From Patescibacteria group bacterium (GTDB lineage Bacteria > Patescibacteriota > Patescibacteriia > UBA2591 > UBA6264), in assembly GCA_028713575.1 (NCBI GenBank), contig JAQTOB010000004.1, forward strand, positions 5,250-69,249: a DNA stretch of 64,000 nucleotides, given 5' to 3'. The translations under genes were made by a program, and so were the position numbers. The notes under the pieces are model-generated. The model was not told the DNA's origin, did no database searches, and saw only the letters and a list, made by a program, of their open reading frames with translations. Shown here one piece after another: positions 4,440 through 60,028 of the stretch. The first letter of the stretch is position 1, and each line of letters starts with the position of its first letter.

Positions 4440-4960
4440 CTTTTGTCAATACCCTGTAAAAATCCACCCATAATAGTACACATCCTGTGCAAGTCCACCC
4501 ATAGTATTACACCTTAGTTTTAACAAACTCATTTACGAGATTATCTACGAGGCGAGACCTCGTAGATCGTAGATTTTGATCATTACATCCTGGGGTCTGA
4601 CCCCATAAACATTCCTTCTAAAACCCTTATCAACAAAGGATTATATGACAAAAATTTCAATTTGGTGTGATTTTGATTAAATTTTTTTATCTACGAGGCG
4701 AGACCTCGTAGGAGGCGTATCTACGAGGCGAGACCTCGTAGATTGTAAATTTTTTATGGGGCTTGGGGTCTGACCCCCTGGGGTCTGGGGTCTGACCCCA
4801 TAAACATTCCTTCTAAAACCCTTATCAACAAAGGATTATATGACAAAAATTTCAATTTGGTGTGATTTTGATTAAATTTTTTTATCTACGAGGTTATCTA
4901 CGAGGCGAGACCTCGTAGATTGTACCTCGTAGATTGTAAATTTTTTAAAGAATGTTAAAA
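4440..4960. repeat. Repeat-rich intergenic region. It holds two copies of the MITE-like element (ggggtctgacccc...tttcaatttggtgtgattttgatt) and four copies of the hairpin tctacgagg-cgaga-cctcgtaga.
   Basis: Direct reading of the sequence. The hairpins are at about 4544-4566, 4689-4711, 4719-4742 and 4898-4920. The element cores begin at 4592 and 4765. Confidence 0.8.
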
Positions 4961-15455: not shown

Positions 15456-17145
15456 ATTTTAATAAAGAATTATCTTGACCGGAAAGAACGATAAAAATTG
15501 ATTCTTTCAGCTGATTGGTTAAAATTTTGAAGACTTTGTTCGTTATTTCGTTATTTAGGTCAGCATAAATAGCGTCCACGATTATTAACAAAGGCTTTTT
15601 TATCAGGCAATAAGCGGCCTGCAAAGAAAAAAGTTCCGTTAAATTCATTTTCATTGATTGAAAATCATGACCCATGAATTTGCTTAATGACATAATAAAA
15701 TTAAATTCTTTAAAGGGAGAAAGTGTTTGAAATGTTTTTTCAACATCTAGGGGCGTAATGTCTTCTTTATTTTTTCCTGTTAAAATTTCACCGATTTTTT
15801 TTTCCGTTGACAAATCGTTTTTGATAAAATAAGCGGGAAAAGAGGCTTGCTGCCAATGTTTGTAAAAAAATCTTTTACCATTGATTTTTACTATCCAGCT
15901 GGAAATATTGAATTGACCTTGACCGGAAAAAATAAGACCTAACTGATTTTTATTTGGATTTTTCCCAAAAATGAGAATTTTTTCACTTTTTTTGAATTCA
16001 AATTTTAGATGATGCGAATATCCGTCTGATTTTATTAATTTTGTTTTTTTTGCATTAAAGGAAATGGTTTGGAAATTTTTGAAATTGATAAATCGGCGCT
16101 TATTGGTTTTAGATTTAGGAACAGAGAGGATTAGCCCCAGCTTGGTAGGCAATGAATAAAATCCGATTTGTAAACTGGTGTAGAGTAAGCGAGTGAGATA
16201 AAAGATAATGATGCCAGAAAGAAATAGATTGCCAATTTCTATTTGCAGAAAAAAAGAAGGAAAATATATTTGCAAAATATAAAATATTCCGGCCAAAAGA
16301 ATTAAAAGAGCGAAAATTACCCGTGGTCCGAAATTGAGCCAAAGATTTCGGCGGATGCGAAAATAAGTGTCAATTTTTACTAAATCATCAAGTTTTTTCA
16401 AGCTTTTTTCTTCCAAGCGATGGCTTTGAATAAAGGGCAATTCATAAAGGTCGGTTACAATATTTTTGATTATTTCCGAATACAAAGTGGTTTCCTTGGT
16501 AATGTAGTTTTTTGCAATGAAATAGCCAATAACTCCAATGGCGATGTTTATAGGAATGAAGGCAAGAACAATGATTAAAAGTTTTGTGTTATAGAAAAAA
16601 GTGATGGAGATTAGTCCTAAAATATAAAGAATCCAACGCATTGAACCAATAAGGCTTTTTTCAACCCCCATTTGTAGCAAAGGAAGATGATATGATATTT
16701 TGGCAATTAAAGAGGCCTTGTTTTGACTTTTTGTTTTGAAAAAGGGACGATGCAGGAAGATTTTAAACCAACCCCTTCTCAAATCGTTTAATAAATAAAC
16801 AATTAGGGTTTTTTCTATTTTTAAACCAATAAAAGAACAAACAAGATAAATCATTACTCCGGCGGAGAGAATAAAAAAAACGATTGGCATTTTTTTGCGG
16901 ATTAAAAGAGCGCTGAATTGGGAAATAAAACTGTGGCTAAACAAAGACAAAATAACTTCTAAAATAACCAGAAAGAAAATAAGCAAAATCATGATTTTTA
17001 CTTCTTTTTTGTGTTTTTTTATAAAACGCAAAAGGTATTGGAAATGAAAATTTTCCAATTTCAGTTGATGGATGTTTTTTTTAATTTTTTCCCTTTGTTG
17101 ATACAAAGAGATCTGATAGTTTTTTTCTTCCATGATGGACCTCAA
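15409..17145 (-). CDS. ABC-exporter-like membrane protein (N-terminal 6-TM domain plus C-terminal NBD-like domain) with all catalytic motifs degenerate (pseudo-ATPase)
   Basis: The TMD carries an ABC_membrane-like LLNDLRRGWFKIFL region. In the NBD-like part the Walker A position reads ILIFGKNPNKNQL (no GxxGxGKS/T). The signature position reads FSLQAAY instead of LSGGQ. The Walker B position reads LLIIVDAIYADLN, so the catalytic E is replaced by A. Confidence 0.55.
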   Translation of the reverse strand: MRSIMEEKNYQISLYQQREKIKKNIHQLKLENFHFQYLLRFIKKHKKEVKIMILLIFFLVILEVILSLFSHSFISQFSALLIRKKMPIVFFILSAGVMIYLVCSFIGLKIEKTLIVYLLNDLRRGWFKIFLHRPFFKTKSQNKASLIAKISYHLPLLQMGVEKSLIGSMRWILYILGLISITFFYNTKLLIIVLAFIPINIAIGVIGYFIAKNYITKETTLYSEIIKNIVTDLYELPFIQSHRLEEKSLKKLDDLVKIDTYFRIRRNLWLNFGPRVIFALLILLAGIFYILQIYFPSFFLQIEIGNLFLSGIIIFYLTRLLYTSLQIGFYSLPTKLGLILSVPKSKTNKRRFINFKNFQTISFNAKKTKLIKSDGYSHHLKFEFKKSEKILIFGKNPNKNQLGLIFSGQGQFNISSWIVKINGKRFFYKHWQQASFPAYFIKNDLSTEKKIGEILTGKNKEDITPLDVEKTFQTLSPFKEFNFIMSLSKFMGHDFQSMKMNLTELFSLQAAYCLIKKPLLIIVDAIYADLNNEITNKVFKILTNQLKESIFIVLSGQDNSLLKYDKKYFLFQKGVEKI

Positions 17146-18319
17146 GATAATATTTATATAAAGAAGGGATTTTAATATTTTTCAAATCCTTTTTTAGTTT
17201 TTTTTGTAATCGGGGAGAATAAGAACCGTAAAAATATTTAGTAATGATGCGGAAAAAAGTTTCAGACAAATTTTTAATTTGTTGTTCGTCATTAACTAAG
17301 ATTTTTTGGCTGATAATTTGCAATAATTGGTTATTTAAAGAATTCTCTTTTTTATAAAGAAGTTGGGAAAAATGTTTCATTTTATTTTTTGGCTTAAAAG
17401 AAAGAAGTGACGTCCGCCAATAACTTATGGTTTTTTTAACAAATGAGTCCTCTAAACTAATTAAACGGTCATGGAAACAATAGCCTAAAAAATTAAATTT
17501 TTCTTTTCCATTTATCAATCTGGTTTTTTCTTTTTTAATTTCTAATTTTAATTCTTTAAGGTGTTGATATAAATATTTTTCAATTTCTTTAAGTTTTTTT
17601 AGACTTGGGTCAAAGGCGATTAAATCGTCGCCGATGCGACGATAAAGGCAAATTTTTGGCCCCAAGTATTTGTCTAGGTCGTCCAAATAAAGATTAGTAA
17701 AAAGGGCGATTAAAGGCACGCCTTGAATAACGCCGATTTTTGGCTGATAAATTTTTTTATCCTTATAAACCGCATTTTTAATGAAAAGTTTAAGGATTTC
17801 CATCAGCGGTTTTTCAGAAATAGTTTTTTCAAGTTTGGTTATTAAAATATCTTGGTCAATGTAATCGGAATAATTTTTAAGGTCGGCAATCAGAATAAAA
17901 TCTTTATCATAATAACGTTGATAGCGTCGCGCCACGCTACGACTGGCGTAAAAACTGCTATGAGAAGAACGATAAGAGAATAGATAAGGCGAATAAAGAT
18001 TTTCAAAAATTGGCTCTAAAACCCGATAAATAGCTTGAGCTTTAATTCGGGCTCTAACTGAATAAACATATATGTCTCTTAAAGAACCGTCTTTTTTTGG
18101 AATGTAATGGCAAATAGCTGGCGCCAAAGGAGTAATTTCAATTAATTCTTTCCTCGCTTTTTGGCAGAATTCTTCTGCCTGAGATTTAACGTCGTTTAGG
18201 CCAAGTCCTTCAATGCCGACGTATCTTGCCGTTAAGGATTTTTGGTCAAATTTTTTAGCCAAATCCAAATAGGCCTGCCGAATGTTTTTAATGTCAATTA
18301 TTTTTTCAAAAAGTTTCAT
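17081..18319 (-). CDS. Reverse transcriptase (group II intron / retron-like RT motifs 0-7 plus a roughly 130-aa C-terminal extension) with an unusual IGDD motif C
   Basis: Motif 0 is RYVGIEGLG and motif 1 is IPKKDGSLRDI. Motif 2 is SVRARIKAQAIYRVLEPIFE and motif 3 is FSYRSSHSSFYA. Motif 4 is ILIADLKNYSDYID and motif 5 is GVIQGVPLIALFTNLYLDDLD. Motif C is LYRRIGDDLIAF and motif 7 is LKLEIKKEKTRLIN...FNFLGYCF. The gene overlaps the downstream gene by 65 nt. Confidence 0.8.
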   Translation of the reverse strand: MKLFEKIIDIKNIRQAYLDLAKKFDQKSLTARYVGIEGLGLNDVKSQAEEFCQKARKELIEITPLAPAICHYIPKKDGSLRDIYVYSVRARIKAQAIYRVLEPIFENLYSPYLFSYRSSHSSFYASRSVARRYQRYYDKDFILIADLKNYSDYIDQDILITKLEKTISEKPLMEILKLFIKNAVYKDKKIYQPKIGVIQGVPLIALFTNLYLDDLDKYLGPKICLYRRIGDDLIAFDPSLKKLKEIEKYLYQHLKELKLEIKKEKTRLINGKEKFNFLGYCFHDRLISLEDSFVKKTISYWRTSLLSFKPKNKMKHFSQLLYKKENSLNNQLLQIISQKILVNDEQQIKNLSETFFRIITKYFYGSYSPRLQKKLKKDLKNIKIPSLYKYYLEVHHGRKKLSDLFVSTKGKN

Positions 18320-22680: not shown

Positions 22681-22710
22681 CTTTTTGGCAGGTGCTCACC
22701 TGCCAAAAAG
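22681..22710. repeat. REP-like palindrome ctttttggcaggtg-ct-cacctgccaaaaag immediately upstream of the Y1 transposase gene
   Basis: Perfect 14-bp inverted repeat. Half-site echoes (gacctgccaaaaaa, acccgccaaaaac) follow. Confidence 0.75.
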
Positions 22711-22752
22711 AAAATGACCTGCCAAAAAAGACCAAACCCGCCAAAAACCAAA

Positions 22753-23412
22753 ATGTCTCTTAAAAATTCACTTAAAATTTACATTAAAGATGGAATCTAT
22801 CACATCTATAACCGGGGCATAGAAAAAAGAAACATCTTTTTAGATGAACAGGATTATAAAGTATTTTTATATTATTTGAAAAGTTATTTAACACCAGTTG
22901 GTCAACAAGAAAAACCGCCCTATGGTATTGATAGAAATGTTTTAGATTTCACCCTTTATAAACAAATCCGGCTTTTTTGTTTTTGTTTAATGCCAAATCA
23001 TTTTCATTTAATGATTCAGCAATTAACTGAAAGGGCGATTATAGAATTTATGAAGCGTTTAACTAACGCCTATGTAAGATATTTTAATGAAAAGTATGAT
23101 CGCAAAAGTATAGGTCCGCTTTTCCAGGGCAAATATAAAGCTGTGTTAATAAAAAAAGAACAACAATTCTTATATTTGCCGTATTATATCCATTTTCACA
23201 ATCCGGAAGGATTATATAGAAACAAGAGAGATGCTGAGTTAATCAAAAAAATACAAAATTATCCTTGGTCAAGTTATGCCGATTATTTAGGTAAACGTGA
23301 CACCAAATGGATTTATAAAAAAGGAATAATGGAGCAATTTATGGAAACAGAAGAAATAAAGCCGGAGACGGAAACTACGCGCAAAATTTTAGGTTCAACG
23401 GTTATAGATTAA
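22753..23412 (+). CDS. Y1 HUH transposase (IS200/IS605 TnpA-like; REP-associated tyrosine transposase-like)
   Basis: YHIYNRG is present. The HUH motif is CLMPNHFHLM. The candidate catalytic Tyr lies in LFQGKYKAVLI. The gene is flanked on both sides by related palindromes. Confidence 0.65.
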   Translation: MSLKNSLKIYIKDGIYHIYNRGIEKRNIFLDEQDYKVFLYYLKSYLTPVGQQEKPPYGIDRNVLDFTLYKQIRLFCFCLMPNHFHLMIQQLTERAIIEFMKRLTNAYVRYFNEKYDRKSIGPLFQGKYKAVLIKKEQQFLYLPYYIHFHNPEGLYRNKRDAELIKKIQNYPWSSYADYLGKRDTKWIYKKGIMEQFMETEEIKPETETTRKILGSTVID

Positions 23413-23425
23413 AGGGAATGTGTAT

Positions 23426-23447
23426 TTGGAAGGTGAGCACCTTCCAA
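23426..23447. repeat. REP-like palindrome ttggaaggtg-ag-caccttccaa immediately downstream of the Y1 transposase
   Basis: Perfect 10-bp inverted repeat of the same ttggNaggtg family as 22681-22710. Confidence 0.75.
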
Positions 23448-23478
23448 GAAATATCTTCCAAGAAATAAGAAATAATTT

Positions 23479-25515
23479 ATGGGTCAACAAGAGGCAAAAC
23501 AAAGAATTGAAAAATTAAAAACGGAACTGAATCATCACCGTTATTTTTATCATGTTTTAGATAAACAGGAAATTTCTGACGCGGCCTGGGATTCTTTAAA
23601 ACACGAATTAGCCAGTTTAGAAGAGCAATACCCGGAATTTATCACTTCTGATTCTCCCACGCAAAGAGTCGGTGGCGAGCCCTTAGAAAAGTTCGTTAAA
23701 ATTAAACACCCCGAACCCATGTTGTCTATTGAAGATGTTTTTAATTTTAAGGAATTGCAAGAATGGGAAGATTATATGAAAGATTATCTTTTAAAAGAAA
23801 TGGGGGTTTTCCCAAAATTCACTTATTTTTGCGAACGAAAAATTGACGGCGTGGACATTGTTTTAATTTATAAAAAAGGAGTTTTATTTAACGCCGCCAC
23901 GCGAGGTAATGGCTTAATTGGCGAAGATGTCACTCAAAACATTAAAACAATAGAAGCTATTCCTTTGCGTTTAGAAAAAGAAATTGATTTGGTGGTCAGA
24001 GGAGAAATTTTTTTACAAAAAAAAGATTTTCAGAAACTTAATCGTGAACGAGAAAAAAGAGGCCTACCGACCTATGCCAATCCTCGTAATATTGCCGCTG
24101 GTTCAATTCGTCAATTAGACCCAAAAATCACGGCTCAACGTTTTCTTGATTGCTATATTTTTGAAATTATCACGGATTTGGGACAGAAAACCCATCAGCA
24201 AGTTCATGAAATTTTAAAACAACTGGGCTTTAAGACAGATTCTCAAACTAAACTTTGTTTTGATTTAAAACAAGTCCAGAAATATTATTTATTTTTAAAT
24301 CAGAAACGGCTAGAAAATTCTTTTGATTATGACGGCATGGTGGTAATGTTAAATGATATTGTTTTACAAAAAAAATTGTCTTTTATTGGCAAATCGCCGC
24401 GTTGGATGCGCGCTTATAAATTTCCTGGAGAACAGACAACAACGATTATAGAAGATATTTTTATTCAGGTTGGCCGAACTGGCGTTTTGACCCCGGTGGC
24501 AAAATTAAAGCCGGTTTCATTGATGGGAACTACGGTTTCTCGCGCTACTTTACATAATCAGGACGAGATAGAGCGATTGGACGCGCGTCTTGGTGACAGC
24601 GTAATTATTGAGAAGGCCGGCGATATTATTCCGGCTGTGGTTAAAGTTTTGAAAAATTTAAGAACCGGGAAAGAAAAAAAATTTCAGATGCCGACAAAAT
24701 GTCCGATTTGCAACGGCCCGATAAGAAAAAAAGAAGGCGAAGTCGCTTATTATTGTCAGAATAAAAATTGTTTTGCCAGCCAGCAAAGAAAAATTAGTTA
24801 TTTTGTTTCTAAAAGATGTTTTGACATTGAAGGTTTGGGCCCAAAAATTATAGGCAAACTTTTAGAAGCGGGATTAATATCAGATGCAGCCGATTTGTTT
24901 AAATTGCAAAAAGGAGATATTATTTTATTAGAAAGTCCGTCTGATATCAAACCGAAAGTTTTAGTGCGGGGGTTCGCGGAAAAATCGGCGGATAATTTAA
25001 TCAAGGCCATTGATAAAAGTAAAGAGATAGAATTGTCGCGCTTTATTCAGGCCCTGGGTATTCGTCACATTGGCGAACAAATGGCTAATGATTTGGCCGA
25101 GTATTTTAAAAGTTTTGAAAAATTTTCTCAAACCAAAAAAGAAGAATTGCTGACCTTATCGGATATTGGTCCGATTGCCAGTCAAAGCATTGTTATGTGG
25201 CTTAAAAACAAAGAAAATCAAAAATTTTTGGGAAAATTAAAAAAATATGGCGTGATTATAAAGAATCATTATTTATTAAAAGCAAAACAAATTTTAAAAG
25301 GAAAATCTTTTGTTTTAACCGGCGTTTTAACATCAATGTCGCGGGAAAAAGCCAAAGAAAAAATTCAAAGTCTTGGCGGCAGGGTTTTAAACGCGGTCAG
25401 CACAAAAACCGATTTTCTTGTTAGTGGAAAAAATCCTGGAAGTAAATATAATACAGCGAAGAGCCTAAGAATTAACATAATCAACGAGCAGGAATTTTTA
25501 AAGATGGTTAGATAG
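23479..25515 (+). CDS. ligA: NAD-dependent DNA ligase
   Basis: The adenylation site is KIDGVDIV (KxDG). The Zn finger is CPICNGPIRKKEGEVAYYCQNKNC. HhH and C-terminal BRCT regions are present. Confidence 0.95.
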   Translation: MGQQEAKQRIEKLKTELNHHRYFYHVLDKQEISDAAWDSLKHELASLEEQYPEFITSDSPTQRVGGEPLEKFVKIKHPEPMLSIEDVFNFKELQEWEDYMKDYLLKEMGVFPKFTYFCERKIDGVDIVLIYKKGVLFNAATRGNGLIGEDVTQNIKTIEAIPLRLEKEIDLVVRGEIFLQKKDFQKLNREREKRGLPTYANPRNIAAGSIRQLDPKITAQRFLDCYIFEIITDLGQKTHQQVHEILKQLGFKTDSQTKLCFDLKQVQKYYLFLNQKRLENSFDYDGMVVMLNDIVLQKKLSFIGKSPRWMRAYKFPGEQTTTIIEDIFIQVGRTGVLTPVAKLKPVSLMGTTVSRATLHNQDEIERLDARLGDSVIIEKAGDIIPAVVKVLKNLRTGKEKKFQMPTKCPICNGPIRKKEGEVAYYCQNKNCFASQQRKISYFVSKRCFDIEGLGPKIIGKLLEAGLISDAADLFKLQKGDIILLESPSDIKPKVLVRGFAEKSADNLIKAIDKSKEIELSRFIQALGIRHIGEQMANDLAEYFKSFEKFSQTKKEELLTLSDIGPIASQSIVMWLKNKENQKFLGKLKKYGVIIKNHYLLKAKQILKGKSFVLTGVLTSMSREKAKEKIQSLGGRVLNAVSTKTDFLVSGKNPGSKYNTAKSLRINIINEQEFLKMVR

Positions 25516-25689
25516 CGACACTATTGCTACAAATTAACATACTAATGCTACGAATACGAGAGAAGATATTATTTATCCAAATTCGTCTTATAAATTAGTT
25601 GGCATATTTTTTAATGTTTATAGAAATATGAAATTTGCATTAATCCTCAGCATTCGCATGCTGTTCGCATATAATTCGCATCGCTTTAT

Positions 25690-25995
25690 ATGATCTCAAA
25701 AGAAGAAGTCCAACATATCGCCAAATTAGTCCGCCTGCGTCTAAGTGAGGCGGAAATAAAAAAATACCAGAAGCAACTGGGGGAAATTTTAGATTATGTT
25801 AGCCAATTGAAAAAAATTTCCACAAAAAACATTATGCCCTTTTCTTTGTTTGGATTAAAAAACATTTTTCGTTTAGATAAACCAAAAGAAAAGAATCAAG
25901 AACAGACAAGAAAATTGGTCCAATCTGCGCCGGCGCAAAAAGAGGGGATGATTAAAACAAAAGGAATTCTTAACATTAAAGCATTAAAGCATTAA
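25690..25995 (+). CDS. gatC: Glu-tRNA(Gln)/Asp-tRNA(Asn) amidotransferase subunit C
   Basis: MISKEEVQHIAKLVRLRLSEAEIKKYQKQLGEILDYVSQL is typical of GatC. It lies upstream of gatA. Confidence 0.8.
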   Translation: MISKEEVQHIAKLVRLRLSEAEIKKYQKQLGEILDYVSQLKKISTKNIMPFSLFGLKNIFRLDKPKEKNQEQTRKLVQSAPAQKEGMIKTKGILNIKALKH

Positions 25996-26232
25996 AGTAC
26001 ACAATAAGTAATTGATTTTCCAGGCCCCGTTATTTTACATTACATTTTGAGGCTGCCGTCCTTTTTTGAAAGGACGGGGTCCGGCCCATTTGTAGATGGC
26101 CTGCGGTTTGAGTTTTGTATTCTGAATTTTTTAATGGAGCAGGCATTTTGACCATGAAAGAAAAAAAATAATTTTAGATTTAAAAAGTAAGAATATTTTT
26201 TATAAAAAGAATTTACAGCATTTACATTATTT

Positions 26233-27666
26233 ATGAATTTAAATCAATTAACAATTTTATCGGTTCATCAGGGTTTAAAAAAGAAAGAATTTTCCAGTCA
26301 AGAATTGACTAAAGATTGCTTAACAAAAATAAAAAAAAGCAATAAAGAAATTAATGCTTTTATTACTGTTTTAGAAAAACAAGCTTTAAAACAAGCCGAG
26401 GAAATTGATAAAAAAATTAAAATTCAAGGCGTGGATAATTTTTTAACTGGTATTCCCCTGGGAATTAAAGACAATATTTTAATTCAAGATGTTGTTTGTA
26501 CTGCTGGTTCAAAAATTTTAGAAAATTATCAGGCTATCTATGATGCCACGGTAATTAAAAAATTAAAAAAAGCTGGAGCGATTTTTTTAGGCAAAACCAA
26601 TCTTGACGAATTCGCCATGGGTAGCTCTACTGAATCGTCTGCCTTTGGTCCGACCAAAAATCCTATTAATTTATCTTATATTCCCGGTGGTTCTTCTGGC
26701 GGTTCTGCCGCCGCAGTCGCGGCTAATATGTGTTTGGCTGCCCTTGGTTCTGATACTGGCGGTTCTGTCCGTCAACCGGCGGGATTTTGTGGCGTCGTTG
26801 GACTAAAACCAACCTATGGGCGGGTTTCTCGCTATGGCTTGATTGCCATGGCTTCTTCTCTTGATCAAATCGGACCATTGACCAAAAACATTGAAGACGC
26901 GGAAATTTTATTTAAAACAATTAAGGGCAAAGATGATTTTGATGCCACTAGCGTTGAGGTAAAAGATGAAGACCCAGGGAAAATGAAAACAAAAAAAATA
27001 AAAATTGGCCTACCTAAAGAATATTTTATCCAAGGGCTTGACTCGCAGATAAAGGAAGTCATCAATAACTTAATTAAAAAATGGCAGAAGCAAGACGCTG
27101 AATTTATAGAGGTTAGTTTGCCCCACGCATCGCTCGCTTTGGCTTGCTATTATATTATTATGCCCGCGGAAGTTTCTTCTAATTTGGCTCGTTATGACGG
27201 CATTAAATACGGATTTTCCACCAATGGGGAAAATAAAAATTTATTAGATGTTTATTTAGATTCTCGAACCACGGGTTTTGGCGAAGAAGTCAAACGCCGA
27301 ATTATGCTCGGCGCCTATACTTTGTCTGCCGGCTATTATCAGGATTATTATTTACAGGCGCAGAAAGTAAGAACTTTAATCAAAAAAGATTTTGAAAAAC
27401 TTTTTCAAGAAAAAGATATAGATTGTTTATTAACCCCAATTAGCCCAACTTTGCCCTGGAAATTGGGAGAAAAAATAAACAACCCTTTAAGTATGTATTT
27501 GGCGGATGTTTATACCGTTTCCGCCAATCTGGCTGGTTTGCCGGCGCTTTCATTGCCTATTGGTAAAATTGATGATTGGCCGGTCAATGGGCAATTAATC
27601 GGTAATTATTTTCAGGAAAGCAAAATTCTGCATCTCGGAAAAATGATTGAAAAATTAGGACTTTAA
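26233..27666 (+). CDS. gatA: Glu-tRNA(Gln) amidotransferase subunit A (amidase signature family)
   Basis: The amidase signature is GGSSGGSAAAVAANMCLAALGSDTGGSVRQPAGFCGVVGLKPTYGRVSRYG. Confidence 0.95.
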   Translation: MNLNQLTILSVHQGLKKKEFSSQELTKDCLTKIKKSNKEINAFITVLEKQALKQAEEIDKKIKIQGVDNFLTGIPLGIKDNILIQDVVCTAGSKILENYQAIYDATVIKKLKKAGAIFLGKTNLDEFAMGSSTESSAFGPTKNPINLSYIPGGSSGGSAAAVAANMCLAALGSDTGGSVRQPAGFCGVVGLKPTYGRVSRYGLIAMASSLDQIGPLTKNIEDAEILFKTIKGKDDFDATSVEVKDEDPGKMKTKKIKIGLPKEYFIQGLDSQIKEVINNLIKKWQKQDAEFIEVSLPHASLALACYYIIMPAEVSSNLARYDGIKYGFSTNGENKNLLDVYLDSRTTGFGEEVKRRIMLGAYTLSAGYYQDYYLQAQKVRTLIKKDFEKLFQEKDIDCLLTPISPTLPWKLGEKINNPLSMYLADVYTVSANLAGLPALSLPIGKIDDWPVNGQLIGNYFQESKILHLGKMIEKLGL

Positions 27667-27718
27667 GGTTTTTGGAGACCAGGTCTCCAAAAACCTTTTG
27701 GAGACCAGGTCTCCAAAA
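27667..27718. repeat. Two adjacent REP-like palindromes (ggtttttggagacc-a-ggtctccaaaaacc and ttttggagacc-a-ggtctccaaaa) directly after the gatA stop codon
   Basis: Perfect inverted repeats. The same family clusters around the second Y1 transposase gene at 58931-59843. Confidence 0.8.
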
Positions 27719-28208
27719 AAGGTATTCAAAAAATGGCTGCTAAAATTCTGTATCTCGGAAAAATGCTGGAAAAAATATAGAAAAACGTACGGAACAAAGC
27801 TTTGTCGTTTTTTATCTATGCGCAAGTCCACCCATAGCATTACACCTGTCTGTTTGAGTAGACGAGAGGTTAAAAGGATAGCGGTCGCCGCCTTGGTATC
27901 GGCTACTCTGCCTACGGCGGGGCCTCGCACGTTGTTGACGTTTATCTCGACCACTCCAACGACAACGGGGGCTTTCGGCTCGCGGTCGTGTTTAAAATCA
28001 AGTCCTGACCTTTGATTCCTAATTTCTAATTGATTTGGAGGACTGAGGACTGAAAACTGAAGACTAATTTTAGGGAGCATTAATGATAGATGGAGATGGC
28101 AATACTTTTTATTTCATTTATCCACATCCTTTGAATGAGCGGGTATGTTGACAAAAATTTTGAAGACTATAAACTAAATAATATTAATTTGTAATTTATT
28201 TTATTCTT

Positions 28209-29231
28209 ATGGAAGAAGTAAAAAATTTAGAAATGGCGAAAAAGCCTTGCCGTTGTAAATTCGGCCTTTGGCAAATAATTGCCGCGATTTTACTTATTAT
28301 TACTGTTGTTTCGGTTTTAACCGGAGGGTTTGGTTTAAAATTGTTCGGAGCTTCTCCTGATAAATTAGCCAAACAAACAGTAGAATTTATTAATCAATAT
28401 TTATTACAGGCAGGCTCTACTGCTTCTTTGATTACCTCTGAATGTAATCATAAAGTTTCTCTTTGTAAATTTAAAATTGATGTTTCTGGCGCCGAATATG
28501 ATTCTTATGTGAGCAGTGACGGTCAAATACTTTTCCCCGACGCGATTGAAATAGAGAAATTTAAAGAACAACAAATTTCGGCAAATCAGGAACAGCAGGT
28601 TTCTTTGGAGGATTTGCCCAGAGCTGAAAAACCCGAAGTAGACCTCTTTATTATGTCCTATTGTCCTTATGGTTTGCAGGCGCAAAAGGCCATGTTGCCG
28701 GCAATGGATTTATTAAAGGATAAAGCGGATATTAAAATTCGTTTTGTTGACTACATTATGCACGACAAACAGGAAATAGATGAAAATTTGAGGCAGTATT
28801 GTATTCAAAAGGAAGAACAGGAAAAATATACAGCTTATCTTAATTGTTTTGTAATTGCCGGTGAATTTGAAAAATGTTTAACCGAAGCGAAAATTAATAA
28901 AACAAAAATGAATAATTGTATTTCTCAAACAGATAAAGAATACAAAATTAGCGCCAATTATGAAGATAAGTCAACCTGGCTGAATGGAAATTATCCCGCT
29001 TTTAATGTGGAGGCGGATTTGAATGACCAATATAATGTTCAAGGTTCTCCCACTTTAGTTATTAATGGACAAGAAATTAATGTTAATCGCACCCCTAATG
29101 ATTACAAAGAAGCGATTTGTTTTGGCTTTGAATCAATGCCCGAAGAGTGCGCTCAAGAGCTTTCTGCCCAATCTTCAACGCCCAGTTTTGGTTTAGAGGC
29201 GGGAGAATCAACTGACGCTGAATGCCAATAA
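28209..29231 (+). CDS. Membrane-anchored thioredoxin-fold (DsbA-like) protein with a CPYG active-site variant
   Basis: N-terminal TM helix. MSYCPYGLQA sits at the usual CxxC position. The C-terminal GSPTLVINGQEI resembles the DsbA/thioredoxin-like motif before the final helix. Confidence 0.35.
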   Translation: MEEVKNLEMAKKPCRCKFGLWQIIAAILLIITVVSVLTGGFGLKLFGASPDKLAKQTVEFINQYLLQAGSTASLITSECNHKVSLCKFKIDVSGAEYDSYVSSDGQILFPDAIEIEKFKEQQISANQEQQVSLEDLPRAEKPEVDLFIMSYCPYGLQAQKAMLPAMDLLKDKADIKIRFVDYIMHDKQEIDENLRQYCIQKEEQEKYTAYLNCFVIAGEFEKCLTEAKINKTKMNNCISQTDKEYKISANYEDKSTWLNGNYPAFNVEADLNDQYNVQGSPTLVINGQEINVNRTPNDYKEAICFGFESMPEECAQELSAQSSTPSFGLEAGESTDAECQ

Positions 29232-52026: not shown

Positions 52027-52600
52027 AGTCCTCCTATTTTTGAGGGGGTCTTTTCTTTGTTTTGAGACTCGGTTTCCCGTTGGAAACCGAGTCTCTTCAC
52101 TTCTTGGTTGTTTTGAGACTCGGTTTCCCGTTGGAAACCGAGTCTCTTCACTTCTTGGCTTCCTGTTTAAAGTTCGGTTTCCCGCTTTGCTTCGTAGCGA
52201 GCTTTGCTCTGCTACTGGGGCTGGAAGCCGAACTTCTTTATTTTATAAAAAGCCACTTGGTCTTTAAAGTCCTCCTATTTTTGAGGGGGTCTTTTCTTTG
52301 TTTTGAGACTCGGTTTCCCGTTGGAAACCGAGTCTCTTCACTTCTTGGCTTTGATACTTTGGCGCAATCCCTGATTATGCCGGCTATGGCCGATTTAGCG
52401 CAATAAAGCTTCTATTATATATACACTTTGTTTTGAGACTCGGTTTCCCGTTGGAAACCGAGTCTCTTCACTTCTTGGCTTCCTGTTTAAAGTTCGGTTT
52501 CCCGCTTTGCTTCGTAGCGAGCTTTGCTCTGCTACTGGGGCTGGAAGCCGAACTTCTTTATTTTATAAAAAGCCACTTGGTCTTTAAAGCCTTTTTTATA
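52027..52600. repeat. Complex tandem repeat region built on a 32-nt perfect hairpin gagactcggtttcc-cgtt-ggaaaccgagtctc (4 copies) plus a twice-repeated 104-bp structured segment and duplicated leader tcctcctatttttgagggggtcttttctttg
   Basis: The hairpin copies are at 52064-52095, 52115-52146, 52305-52336 and 52435-52466. The 104-bp segment is at 52157-52260 and 52487-52590. Confidence 0.85.
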
Positions 52601-52689
52601 GGGAGGTTTGACCCCTTCCTCTTGTTATAAATATTATAAATGTTATAATAATTTTCTACTATTTTCGTAAAATTTTCGTATTTCGTAGC

Positions 52690-53220
52690 ATGTTCCACCT
52701 CAGAGAGAAAATCCTTTTTCATCAAATTAAAAACGGTGACGAACAGGCCTTCACCGTCTTTTATAATACCTATAAAGACAGAATTTATCGTTTTATTTAT
52801 TTTAAAGTTTCTGATCGTGAAAAAGTTTATGATTTGGTTTCCGAAGTTTTTATTAAAATATATGATTATATTAAAGAGGGGAATGACATTGATAATTTTC
52901 AAGCTTTTTTGTATAAAATCGCTCGTAATTTAGTAATAGATTTTTATCGCACTAAAAAAGAGGAAATTTCTTTAACTGATGCGCCGGAAACAGTTTCTCC
53001 TATCAATTTAGAAAAAGAAGTGGGAGATAAGGTTGCCGTGGAAAACGTCAAAAGATACCTTAATAAAATTAAACCAGAATACCGCGAAGCGGTTCATCTT
53101 CATTTTTTTGAAAATTTTTCTTTTTCCGAGATTGCGGATATTATCAATCAATCCGAAGGCAATGTTAGGATTAGGGTTTATCGCGGCATTAAGCAATTAA
53201 AAGAGGTTTTAAGGGGTTGA
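52690..53220 (+). CDS. RNA polymerase sigma factor, ECF (sigma-70 group 4) family
   Basis: Region 2 is FYNTYKDRIYRFIYFKVSD...DLVSEVFIKIY. Region 4 is FSFSEIADIINQSEGNVRIRVYRGIKQLK. Confidence 0.8.
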   Translation: MFHLREKILFHQIKNGDEQAFTVFYNTYKDRIYRFIYFKVSDREKVYDLVSEVFIKIYDYIKEGNDIDNFQAFLYKIARNLVIDFYRTKKEEISLTDAPETVSPINLEKEVGDKVAVENVKRYLNKIKPEYREAVHLHFFENFSFSEIADIINQSEGNVRIRVYRGIKQLKEVLRG

Positions 53221-53760
53221 ACCCCTTCTATATGTAGGGGTTCAACCCCCTCCCCAATAATCGCCATCATAAACTTTTTACACAGGAACTTTTTACACAT
53301 TTTTACACAGGACATTTTTACACAGGTTGAACCTGTGTAAATTTTCATTTGCATATTTCACAAAACAAATCCAAAATCCAAAACCCAAATTTTCATAATC
53401 ACTTGGGAACCGAGTTTCTAAAAAGCAAGAAAGCAAGAGATGGATTCTACGCTAGAAACTCGGTTTCCCGTTGGAAACCGAGTTTCCTTCTCCCCAATAA
53501 TCGCCATCATAAACTTTTTACACAGGAACTTTTTACACATTTTTATACAGCACATTTTTACACAGCACATTTTTATACATTTTTACACAGGTTGAACCTG
53601 TGTAAATTTTCATTTGCATATTTCACAAAACAAATCCAAAATCCAAAACCCAAATTTTCATAATCACTTGGGAACCGAGTTCCTAAAAAGACATTTTTAC
53701 ACAGGTTGAACCTGTGTAAATTTTCATTTGGCATTTAGTCATTTGATATTGATTTGACAT
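53213..53760. repeat. Repeat region downstream of the sigma gene. It has palindromes ggggttgaacccc and ggggttcaacccc, a roughly 200-bp direct repeat (two copies), and a compensatory variant of the 52-kb hairpin (gaaactcggtttcc-cgtt-ggaaaccgagtttc).
   Basis: Direct repeat copies at about 53246-53440 and 53490-53690. ttacacaggttgaacctgtgtaa palindromes occur at 53313-53341 and again in the second copy. The variant hairpin is at 53454-53485. Confidence 0.8.
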
Positions 53761-58930: not shown

Positions 58931-59293
58931 TCTTTGGAGACCAGGTCTCCAAAGATAGATATAACGTTTGACTGAAGCGCGTGTCCGCCTCTGGTGGACT
59001 AAAATCAGTCCATCTGGAATAATATAATAAAAATATTAGTTCCATCGCCAAAATCCCCTTAACAGGGGATTTTGGCTTTTAAAAGGGCGCAATACCTGCC
59101 TATCGGCAGGTTTTGGAGACCAGGTCTCCAAAAAAAGTCTCCAAAAAAATCTTGCGAGGTTTTTTAGTTTTAGAGACCAGTTTTTTGGAGACCTGGTCTC
59201 CAAAAAACCCTGCGAGGCCTTTTAGGGATTGTTTTTTTTAAATTAAAATATTATAATAATTGGAGACCTAATTTGGAGACCTGGTCTCCAAAT
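58931..59293. repeat. Cluster of at least 4 REP-like palindromes of the ttggagacc-N-ggtctccaa family (58931-58955, 59111-59133, 59181-59207, 59273-59293) plus half-site fragments, upstream of Y1 transposase paralog 2
   Basis: Perfect inverted repeats. Same family as 27667-27718. Confidence 0.85.
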
Positions 59294-60028
59294 TACTCCA
59301 AATTAAAAAATAGCCTTATGAGAAAAATTAAATTTGTTAATGATGAGTATTATCATATTTATAACCGTGGAGTAGATAAACGGATTATTTTTGAGGATAA
59401 AGATGATTTAAAAAGATTTTTCCAAAGTATGAAAGAGTTTAATGTTTTAGAGCCAATAGGTAGCATTTATGAAGCGGTTCGTTGTAAAACTTTTAGAGAA
59501 ACTTTTGGAGACCAAGTCTCCAAAAGTTTTACAAATAATGAAAGATTGGTTGATTTTATTTGTTACAATTTACTTCCCAATCATTATCATTTCATTTTAA
59601 AACAGTCAGTTGAAGATGGAATTAAGAAATTTATGCATAGACTCGGATTGGGTTACGCAATGTTTTTCAATCAAAAGTATAAGCGCAACGGTTCATTGTT
59701 CCAAGGACCGTTTAAGGCGATTCATATTGATTCCGAAGCTTATTTGCTTCACTTGAGCGCTTATATTAATTTGAATCATAGGGTTCATTCTAAATTTGAG
59801 GATTTTGGAGACCTTGAGGATTTTGGAGACCTGGTCTCCAAAAGATATAAATCAAGCTGGGAGGAATATTTGGGATTAAATCAAGAAAAATTTTGTCAAA
59901 AGGAAATTCTTTTAGACCAATTTGACACAATAAAAAGCTATAGAGAGTTTGCCGAAGAATCATTAAAAGGAATAAGAGAAAGAAAGGAAATAAAAAAGTT
60001 TCTTTTAGATGATCAAATAATTGGTTGA
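59273..60028 (+). CDS. Y1 HUH transposase paralog 2 (IS200/RAYT-like). It carries in-frame REP-palindrome insertions and a Phe at the position aligned with the catalytic Tyr of paralog 1.
   Basis: YHIYNRG is present and the HUH motif is LLPNHYHFIL. GPFKAI aligns with GKYKAV of paralog 1. REP copies are at 59501-59527 and 59821-59843 inside the ORF. The start may instead be the ATG at 59318. Confidence 0.55.
   Translation: METWSPNYSKLKNSLMRKIKFVNDEYYHIYNRGVDKRIIFEDKDDLKRFFQSMKEFNVLEPIGSIYEAVRCKTFRETFGDQVSKSFTNNERLVDFICYNLLPNHYHFILKQSVEDGIKKFMHRLGLGYAMFFNQKYKRNGSLFQGPFKAIHIDSEAYLLHLSAYINLNHRVHSKFEDFGDLEDFGDLVSKRYKSSWEEYLGLNQEKFCQKEILLDQFDTIKSYREFAEESLKGIRERKEIKKFLLDDQIIG

Follow-up and report, generated by a model that had tools for sequence, protein, structure and literature searches.

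The 64-kb window analysed here, a stretch of contig JAQTOB010000004.1 (assembly GCA_028713575.1) from an ultra-small Patescibacterium, contains an intact gatA gene for Asp/Glu-tRNA amidotransferase subunit A, whose terminal codons recur in the spacer downstream, beyond a cluster of repetitive extragenic palindromes (REPs). The gatA product matches Pfam Amidase over residues 24-466 (E=2.8e-150), and public proteins 100% identical to it carry the name GatA (Patescibacteria group bacterium, metagenome-assembled genome or MAG). The gene is preceded by gatC at 25690-25995, with ligA before gatC, and its 3' end reads ...AAAATTCTGCATCTCGGAAAAATGATTGAAAAATTAGGACTTTAA. The spacer that follows (27667-28141, ~475 nt) is specific to this species and consists, in order, of the REP cluster, 8 nt, the second copy of the gatA tail with a TAG codon, a hairpin, a 29-nt motif, a GC-rich block, and a final 87 nt. 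The GC-rich block resembles the variable region (VR) of a target gene of a diversity-generating retroelement (DGR). The features of this locus and of the related REP locus are collected in Table 1.

Table 1. Features of the gatA spacer and of the transposase-associated REP locus, in coordinates of the window.
Feature	Position	Strand	Basis and remarks
gatA (Asp/Glu-tRNA amidotransferase subunit A)	26233-27666	+	477 aa, intact; open reading frame and Pfam Amidase
Tail 1, in-gene repeat copy (KILHLGKMIEKL)	27622-27657	+	gatA C-terminal helix; direct-repeat search
REP cluster	27665-27733	.	REP1, REP2, and degenerate right arm
Tail 2, downstream repeat copy (KILYLGKMLEKI)	27742-27777	+	32/36 match to tail 1
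A-run/hairpin/U-run, weak terminator-like	27781-27813	+	directly after the TAG of tail 2; fold -9 kcal/mol, z=-2.46
29-nt intergenic motif, (C)AAGTCCACCCATAGCATTACACCT	27819-27847	+	second copy at 4486-4514; blastn, 93% over 29 nt
Putative orphan DGR-type VR	27874-28008	+	last 44 codons and stop of a target gene, KDSGRRL...GGFRLAVVFKIKS and stop
Conserved 3' flank of the VR	28009-28053	+	blastn against full-length target genes of L023/L024 and the 5' end of L023
Promoter-like site TTGACA-16-TAAACT of the next gene (340 aa, 28209-29231)	28148-28175	+	promoter scan
Four REP copies upstream of the RAYT-like gene	58933-59292	.	palindrome scan
RAYT-like IS200-family Y1 transposase gene	59318-60028	+	236 aa; Pfam Y1_Tnp PF01797

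The in-gene copy (tail 1) and the downstream copy (tail 2) form a 36-nt direct repeat with 89% identity (32/36), spaced 120 nt from start to start and separated by 84 nt. The two correspond in frame, codon for codon, over 12 codons, and the edges of the repeat are sharp, with homology ending at 27622/27742 on one side and at 27657/27777 on the other. Tail 2 starts 75 nt beyond the gatA stop codon, on the far side of the REP cluster, and lies within a 15-codon mini open reading frame (ORF) at 27733-27780 that comprises ATG GCT GCT, the 12 repeated codons, and TAG. An earlier sequence-only reading of this DNA had described the gatA end, two palindromes, and a look-alike downstream, all of which are present. 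It had also given the duplicate as the last ~45 nt of gatA at ~88% identity; the duplicate stands, but its length comes down to 36 nt, or 12 codons, at 89%.

Similarity of this kind might arise by chance in AT-rich DNA. The region is AT-rich, and a nearby inverted match of 29 nt (27641-27669 with 28008-28036, 76% complementary) falls inside the chance range of shuffled sequences. However, when 27400-28100 was shuffled 300 times with dinucleotides preserved, the top 36-nt direct match per shuffle lay between 20 and 25 of 36 positions and never reached 32, the 24-nt core pattern of the repeat occurs at only these two sites in the window (0 expected), and the match is in frame. With 32/36 set against a shuffle maximum of 25/36, chance is excluded as an explanation, and we would give it a probability close to nil. 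The same inverted match had been considered as the boundary of an invertible or inverted-repeat-bounded element, and this candidate was dropped because the match lies within the chance range. A systematic scan of the window found no other duplicated gene tail in real genes, gatA being the sole case, and the sequence TTCAAAAAATGGCTGCT, examined as the join of a tandem duplication, has no second copy.

Two palindromes of sequence TTTTGGAGACCAGGTCTCCAAAAA, perfect and 100% identical to each other, lie between the tails at 27670-27693 and 27696-27719. The extended palindrome of the first (REP1, 27665-27697) overlaps the final two bases of the gatA TAA stop codon, and the second (REP2) is followed by a degenerate right arm, GGTATTCAAAAAA, at 27721-27733. 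REP1 and REP2 share a central base (A), and with each unit a near-perfect palindrome the pair also folds as a single long hairpin; the RNA fold of 27660-27740 has an energy of -37 kcal/mol (z=-5.8). Searches of 27500-28400 against Rfam at gathering and permissive thresholds returned no RNA family, just spurious miRNA-like matches on the REP hairpins, and the GC-rich block accordingly belongs to no known RNA. When at most one mismatch is allowed and the better-matching strand is taken for each occurrence, TTTGGAGACCWGGTCTCCAAA has eight copies in the window against 0.00 expected, and the REP core GGAGACCNGGTCTCC occurs eight times against 0.06 expected. The six copies away from gatA all lie at 58933-59842, around and inside a gene for a Y1 transposase (59318-60028). 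Because the same palindrome both flanks and sits inside a Y1 transposase gene, the copies next to gatA are, on this evidence, REPs in the functional sense, as the sequence-only reading had named them. Six of the eight copies are intergenic and two are in frame within the transposase ORF; those at gatA begin 2 nt inside the stop codon, and the first of the group upstream of the transposase gene begins 5 nt past the stop codon of a gene encoding 1249 aa.

The 59318-60028 protein scored 26.6 bits against Pfam Y1_Tnp (E=7.2e-6, cutoff 23) and carries the HUH motif NHYHFIL with a downstream Tyr (SAYINLN). Its two in-frame REPs, at 59504-59524 and 59822-59842, encode FGDQVSK and FGDLVSK, respectively. 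A Saccharibacteria MAG encodes a 52%-identical transposase with the identical 21-nt REP, in frame at the equivalent position (L005:948-968), which suggests that the REP DNA is far better conserved than the surrounding transposase protein. This MAG was the only further genome in which a scan of GTDB genomes found the REP. A second Y1 transposase gene at 22714-23412 has its own, distinct TTTTGG...CCAAAA palindromes (region 22681-23447), with flanks of TTTTTGGCAGGTG-CTC-ACCTGCCAAAAA and TTGGAAGGTG-AG-CACCTTCCAA; they share the TTTGG...CCAAA design of the gatA REP and have another core. Scans of viral sequences for both REP types were empty. The curated NCBIfam threshold for REP-associated tyrosine transposases (RAYTs; REP_Tyr_transpos, NF047646, cutoff 80) was missed by the products of both genes, with 20.7 bits for the 59318-60028 protein and 33.5 bits for the other, and the two are accordingly best described from their sequences as IS200-like transposases in a RAYT-like context and not as certified RAYT equivalogs. 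The 59318-60028 transposase is the predicted cognate of the gatA REP and may also catalyse its mobility, for which the differing structure of the cluster among strains is indirect evidence. The window also holds at least three further families of palindromic repeats in intergenic clusters at 4543-4920, 52065-53485, and 53317-53720, in which ATCTACGAGGCGAGACCTCGTAGAT has three copies, AGACTCGGTTTCCCGTTGGAAACCGAGTCT five, and TTTACACAGGTTGAACCTGTGTAAA three, and GGGGTCTGACCCC units occur near 4590-4800.

Four same-species assemblies (L001, L007, L008, and L022, from four samples) extend beyond the REP cluster, and each of them has tail 1, the REPs, and tail 2; two more (L002 and L003) stop within the cluster. 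The same-species assemblies examined include no REP-free allele. The flanks of the cluster are 99.0-99.9% identical among strains, and the cluster itself has four structural alleles, represented by the window, by L001, by L007/L008/L022, and by the complex L002/L003. The sequence TAAGGTTTTTGGAG, which comprises the stop codon and the REP left arm, is doubled in tandem in L001, whereas AGGTTTTTGGAGACCAG is doubled in L007, L008, and L022, which come from three independent samples; L002 and L003 have more complex forms. These strain-level tandem duplications are 14 and 17 nt long and span the gatA stop codon and a REP half-site. Inside the RAYT-like gene, an 18-nt unit, TTGAGGATTTTGGAGACC, is also present twice beside a REP. 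At these hairpins, short segments made up of unique flank and a REP arm have repeatedly been duplicated.

The sequence-only reading had gone further and proposed a REP-mediated duplication or replacement that remodelled the C-terminus of gatA, with the downstream version as the end to look for in a REP-free allele. The polarity of the two tails was assessed with four outgroups: the sister species L009 and the syntenic relatives L015, L016, and L019. The latter three share the order ligA-gatC-gatA-340 aa-lgt at 71-73% amino-acid identity, and the distance from gatA to the next gene is 102-152 nt in them, with no duplicate, compared with 542 nt in the window. In the nearest species (76% amino-acid identity; L009-L014), uppS lies 12 nt after gatA. 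The orthologues of L015, L016, and L019, which are REP-free, and the gatA of L009 end in upstream-type sequence, which does not support the proposal. Tail 1 carries the outgroup state at three of the four differing bases. At codon 4 (CAT in tail 1, TAT in tail 2) the C of tail 1 is found in every outgroup, and at codon 9 (ATT versus CTG) all four have ATT or ATC; the fourth base, the first of codon 12 (TTA versus ATA), is mixed, with T in L015 and L016, C in L009, and A in L019. DNA homology with the orthologues covers tail 1 and stops at 27657/8, and the stop codon after tail 1 stands in a '..xTT TAA' context similar to those of L015 (TTT TAA) and L016 (GTT TAA).

Both tail peptides look like GatA ends, scoring 28.7 bits (tail 1) and 25.4 bits (tail 2) against a profile of 86 homologue tails. 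The four differences between them fall in three codons, with three non-synonymous and no synonymous changes, and the amino-acid changes in tail 2 (H/Y, I/L, and L/I) are all conservative. A set of differences that is exclusively non-synonymous fits neutral decay and does not fit a second selected allele. Together with the outgroup states in tail 1, it therefore identifies tail 2 as the derived copy, a decaying relic that is apparently non-functional. These comparisons indicate that gatA has kept its ancestral, functional C-terminus; the protein was not remodelled, and nothing was replaced. The duplication part of the proposal does hold, as the duplicate is real, specific to this species, and accompanied by REPs in 4/4 assemblies. 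No orthologous locus was found to carry the duplicate without REPs, and the syntenic relatives have no duplicate at all. Furthermore, both tails share derived synonymous states (CTG, CTC, and GGA) relative to the outgroups, and the copy must therefore have been made within this lineage.

These data bear directly on allele capture, in which an incoming gatA 3' end, delivered by site-specific integration or by homology-facilitated illegitimate recombination, became the expressed end and displaced the resident tail downstream, and most of the incoming element was later lost. This is the classic route by which a 3' end is doubled and its displaced copy diverges, known from e14 and phage 21 at E. 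coli icd, and it would account for tails that differ by 11% in strains that differ by only 0.1-0.3%. However, most differences between two functional alleles should be synonymous, and here none is. The shared derived CTG, CTC, and GGA codons argue that both tails come from this lineage, and just 84 nt lie between the tails, with no integrase or element remnant. We consider this origin distinctly improbable.

We favor a REP-associated local templated duplication as the origin of the 36-nt patch, a reading to which we would give an even chance. REP hairpins directly after the stop codon would favor slippage during replication, template switching, or the repair of breaks at this junction. The 14- and 17-nt tandem duplications of stop codon and REP half-site would be this process acting today at a small scale, and one larger templated event would have copied 36 nt of the gatA tail into the spacer. 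Tail 2 would since have gained its four substitutions, the patch having no function of its own, and the spacer would have become a 'junkyard' that also collected a truncated DGR target fragment. We infer that the REPs played a causal role, which is plausible because the strains carry tandem duplications of precisely the stop codon and a REP half-site.

Several points weigh against this account. The feature is found in a single lineage only, which places its association with REPs beyond statistical test. The strain-level duplications are simple tandem ones, whereas the patch is dispersed and the intervening 84 nt do not recur beyond tail 2, which calls for an event of another kind or of several steps. 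A divergence of ~11% would imply an event far older than the present REP copies, which are perfectly conserved and fast-changing, and the REPs present at that time therefore cannot be read from those of today. The conservative nature of the changes in tail 2 leaves room for a period under selection, the sites being few and uninformative. In addition, the A-run/hairpin/U-run follows tail 2 and not tail 1, which suits the main rival reading, an insertion.

Under such an insertion, the original end of gatA would have been ...MIEKL-TAG, with the 27781-27813 hairpin right behind it. The tail would then have received an 84-nt element (GGACTTTAA + REPs + TGGCTGCT) with a 36-bp target duplication, and the new upstream copy, two element-encoded codons, and a stop would have rescued gatA while the old copy decayed. 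The stop codon and A-run/hairpin/U-run right after tail 2 look like an original gene end, the stop codon of L015 likewise has a hairpin within 5 nt, the repeat boundaries are sharp, and the polarity is compatible, since an insertion would have started out with two identical copies. However, the '..xTT TAA' context of tail 1 is like that of L015 and L016, which suggests that GGACTTTAA is ancestral and not element-borne, and the other REP sites in the window have no flanking duplication. IS200/IS605-type Y1 transposases enter single-stranded DNA without target duplications, and 36 bp is, to our knowledge, far above any known transposon target duplication. On balance, insertion seems unlikely to us. 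It should be noted that in L015 the sole sequence between the gatA stop codon and the next promoter (L015:1985-2005) is a hairpin, TTTGGAAGC-GAG-GCTTCCAAA, of the same design as the REP. A REP-like terminator hairpin at the end of gatA may thus be ancestral rather than a new insertion.

The rest of the spacer holds features of other kinds. A simple terminator scan made no call on 27781-27813. The 29-nt motif, AAGTCCACCCATAG(C/T)ATTACACCT, is present in two unrelated intergenic regions, with a degenerate third copy at 4460-4481, and could be a promoter, an operator, or an element end. The promoter-like site of the next gene is conserved in relatives, aligning by eye with those of L015 and L016, and the lineage-specific spacer ends there on its right side; other strains have a 4-nt insertion (GAAT) at 28142/28143, just upstream of its -35 box. 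Public assemblies annotate a minus-strand gene of 141-144 aa at 27655-28080, running antisense through the DGR fragment, tail 2, and the REPs. This minus-strand ORF (141 aa in the window) and a plus-strand ORF at 27698-28015 were both rejected as genes, with no Pfam match and strain changes that lack synonymous bias, and the minus-strand gene call is almost certainly spurious.

The GC-rich block further downstream was characterized through its variation among strains. The VR frame reads KDSGRRLGIGYSAYGGASHVVDVYLDHSNDNGGFRLAVVFKIKS up to a stop codon at 28006-28008, and its hypervariable core (27887-27967) contains 18 variable sites in three alleles, one of which is shared by L007, L008, and L022. 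All but one of these sites (17/18) fall at codon positions 1-2 of one plus-strand frame. Single-nucleotide differences number 7/91 and 14/91 inside the VR versus 9/~6,500 and 20/~7,340 outside, ~55-fold denser than in the flanks, and transversions make up 8/18 of the VR sites versus 2/17 in the upstream flank (23233-27600). No intact target ORF exists at the VR; an in-frame TAA (27871-27873) stands immediately upstream, and there is no start codon.

The VR peptide had no match by 5-mer word search and no Pfam match. An exhaustive HMMER search of 1.84 billion proteins returned a single match (E=6e-4), the 398-aa protein P0125, which shares 63% identity with the VR fragment over its last 43 residues. 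The P0125 gene (L023/L024) comes from the same samples as the sister species and shows 78% nucleotide identity over 180 nt (27874-28053), across both the VR and the 3' flank. In the sister species, the end of one VR and its 3' flank precede the next DGR target gene (L023, 1-81 and 1192-1371; L024); the target genes appear to be arranged in tandem, and the L023/L024 contigs are probably just 1.3-1.4 kb long because the assembly breaks at VRs. The P0125 family has 40 members with no Pfam domain and the common ending ...WEWTST...DSGxRLxVGxSxxGGA...GFRLxVVF. One member, P0142, adjoins bAvd, an RVT_1 reverse transcriptase (RT), and a template repeat (TR) in L026, where 26/29 of the VR/TR mismatches fall on TR adenines. 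We take the GC-rich block, from this likeness and from its pattern of variation, to be an orphan DGR VR cassette, truncated almost precisely where the VR begins on its 5' side, a remnant and not a functional target. Neither a cognate TR nor a DGR RT was found in the window or in a scan of one JGI metagenome. For the TR, blastn of the VR against the window and against the RT flanks, a scan of viral contigs, and the JGI scan gave only the VR itself, in the JGI case as another copy. The window does encode an RT of 412 aa on the minus strand (17081-18319; RVT_1 E=5e-19, motifs QGVPL... and RIGDD). It is group-II-like (146 bits, below the cutoff of 300) or unclassified, has no TR or other repeat partner nearby, and was rejected as a DGR RT.

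The proximity of this remnant raises the idea of an RT-mediated patch, in which aberrant DGR retrohoming switched template to gatA mRNA and placed a piece of the mRNA 3' end ahead of the VR, with loss of the main part of the target gene in the same event. A DGR-type VR that has lost its gene body does lie 97 nt downstream, and tail 2 with its stop codon, hairpin, and U-run resembles the 3' end of a transcript. However, the window has no DGR RT or TR, and the present transcript end (tail 1 + GGACTTTAA + REPs) is unlike tail 2 + TAG + hairpin. We know of no precedent for a templated patch of this kind, and we regard this scenario as highly improbable. A broader proposal is that REP hairpins directly after stop codons in these tiny genomes might be recurrent generators of templated duplications of the adjacent unique sequence, with events of 14-18 nt segregating among strains and one of 36 nt fixed, and that a DGR might keep rewriting the gene-less VR in trans. 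We find this doubtful. If it were true, stop codons and coding tails would be copied repeatedly into the spacer and would provide raw material for new C-termini, those of essential genes included.

Taken by itself, the duplication carries little weight; it is a modest footprint of repeat-associated DNA instability, in which GatA is unchanged and the duplicate is inert. As a footprint it is clean and datable, suggesting that REP clusters in ultra-small Patescibacteria are unstable at the gene/REP junction and that this instability reaches the coding end of an essential gene. The locus also calls for caution in annotation, since MAG pipelines call a spurious 141-144-aa minus-strand gene that covers the REPs together with the tail copy and the DGR fragment. 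Of greater interest for further work are the orphan DGR VR and a REP that very distant Patescibacteria have kept in frame within its own transposase gene.

A literature search found no paper tying RAYT-REP systems to Patescibacteria and none directly relevant to REP-joined duplications. All parts of the locus are of known kinds (REP/RAYT, hairpin-associated duplication, and DGR target remnant), and what is new is the host, an ultra-small Patescibacterium. The closest counterpart of the palindromes is the REP/REPIN-RAYT system of Pseudomonas and of the bacterial interspersed mosaic elements (BIMEs) of E. coli (Bertels and Rainey 2011, PMC3116915, PMC3337134). Here too, short GC-cored palindromes occur in several copies, mostly past stop codons, and gather at a single IS200-like Y1 (HUH) transposase gene, and the second RAYT-like gene (22714-23412) has distinct cognate palindromes of its own. 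However, the copies are few (8 in 64 kb, at two loci), a GTAG-type 5' tetranucleotide is absent, and the near-perfect palindromic units mask any inverted-doublet (REPIN) architecture. The transposase gene itself contains two in-frame copies, and the transposases fall below the NCBIfam RAYT cutoff.

The T. denticola case is the nearest for the DGR remnant: isolates of Treponema denticola carry truncated or 'suspicious' VR-bearing DGR target remnants, and some such isolates have no RT and TR (PMC4891356). Those remnants share with ours a VR-bearing 3' target fragment without a gene body. The fragment described here differs in being cut at the 5' edge of the VR, in having no ORF, in lying within the 3' spacer of gatA, and in showing three alleles among strains that are more than 99% identical.

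Duplicated gene ends and hairpin-borne repeats also have precedents. Integrated elements such as e14 and phage 21 in E. coli icd, and those with tRNA-gene integrases, duplicate gene 3' ends, keeping a working 3' end with a diverged displaced copy shortly downstream, much as at gatA. In contrast to icd, the tails of gatA are separated by 84 nt of REPs with no integrase, every codon that differs between them encodes another amino acid, and it is the in-gene copy that is ancestral. Hairpins and quasi-palindromes are linked to slippage and template-switch duplications, and the 14-, 17-, and 18-nt tandem units, each made of unique flank and one REP arm, are alike in kind; the fixed 36-nt patch is different, being dispersed (120 nt apart) and non-tandem. 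Finally, Rickettsia palindromic elements are in-frame insertions of palindromes in ORFs, and the REP in frame inside the RAYT-like gene resembles them, with the difference that here only the transposase gene is affected and gatA is uninterrupted.

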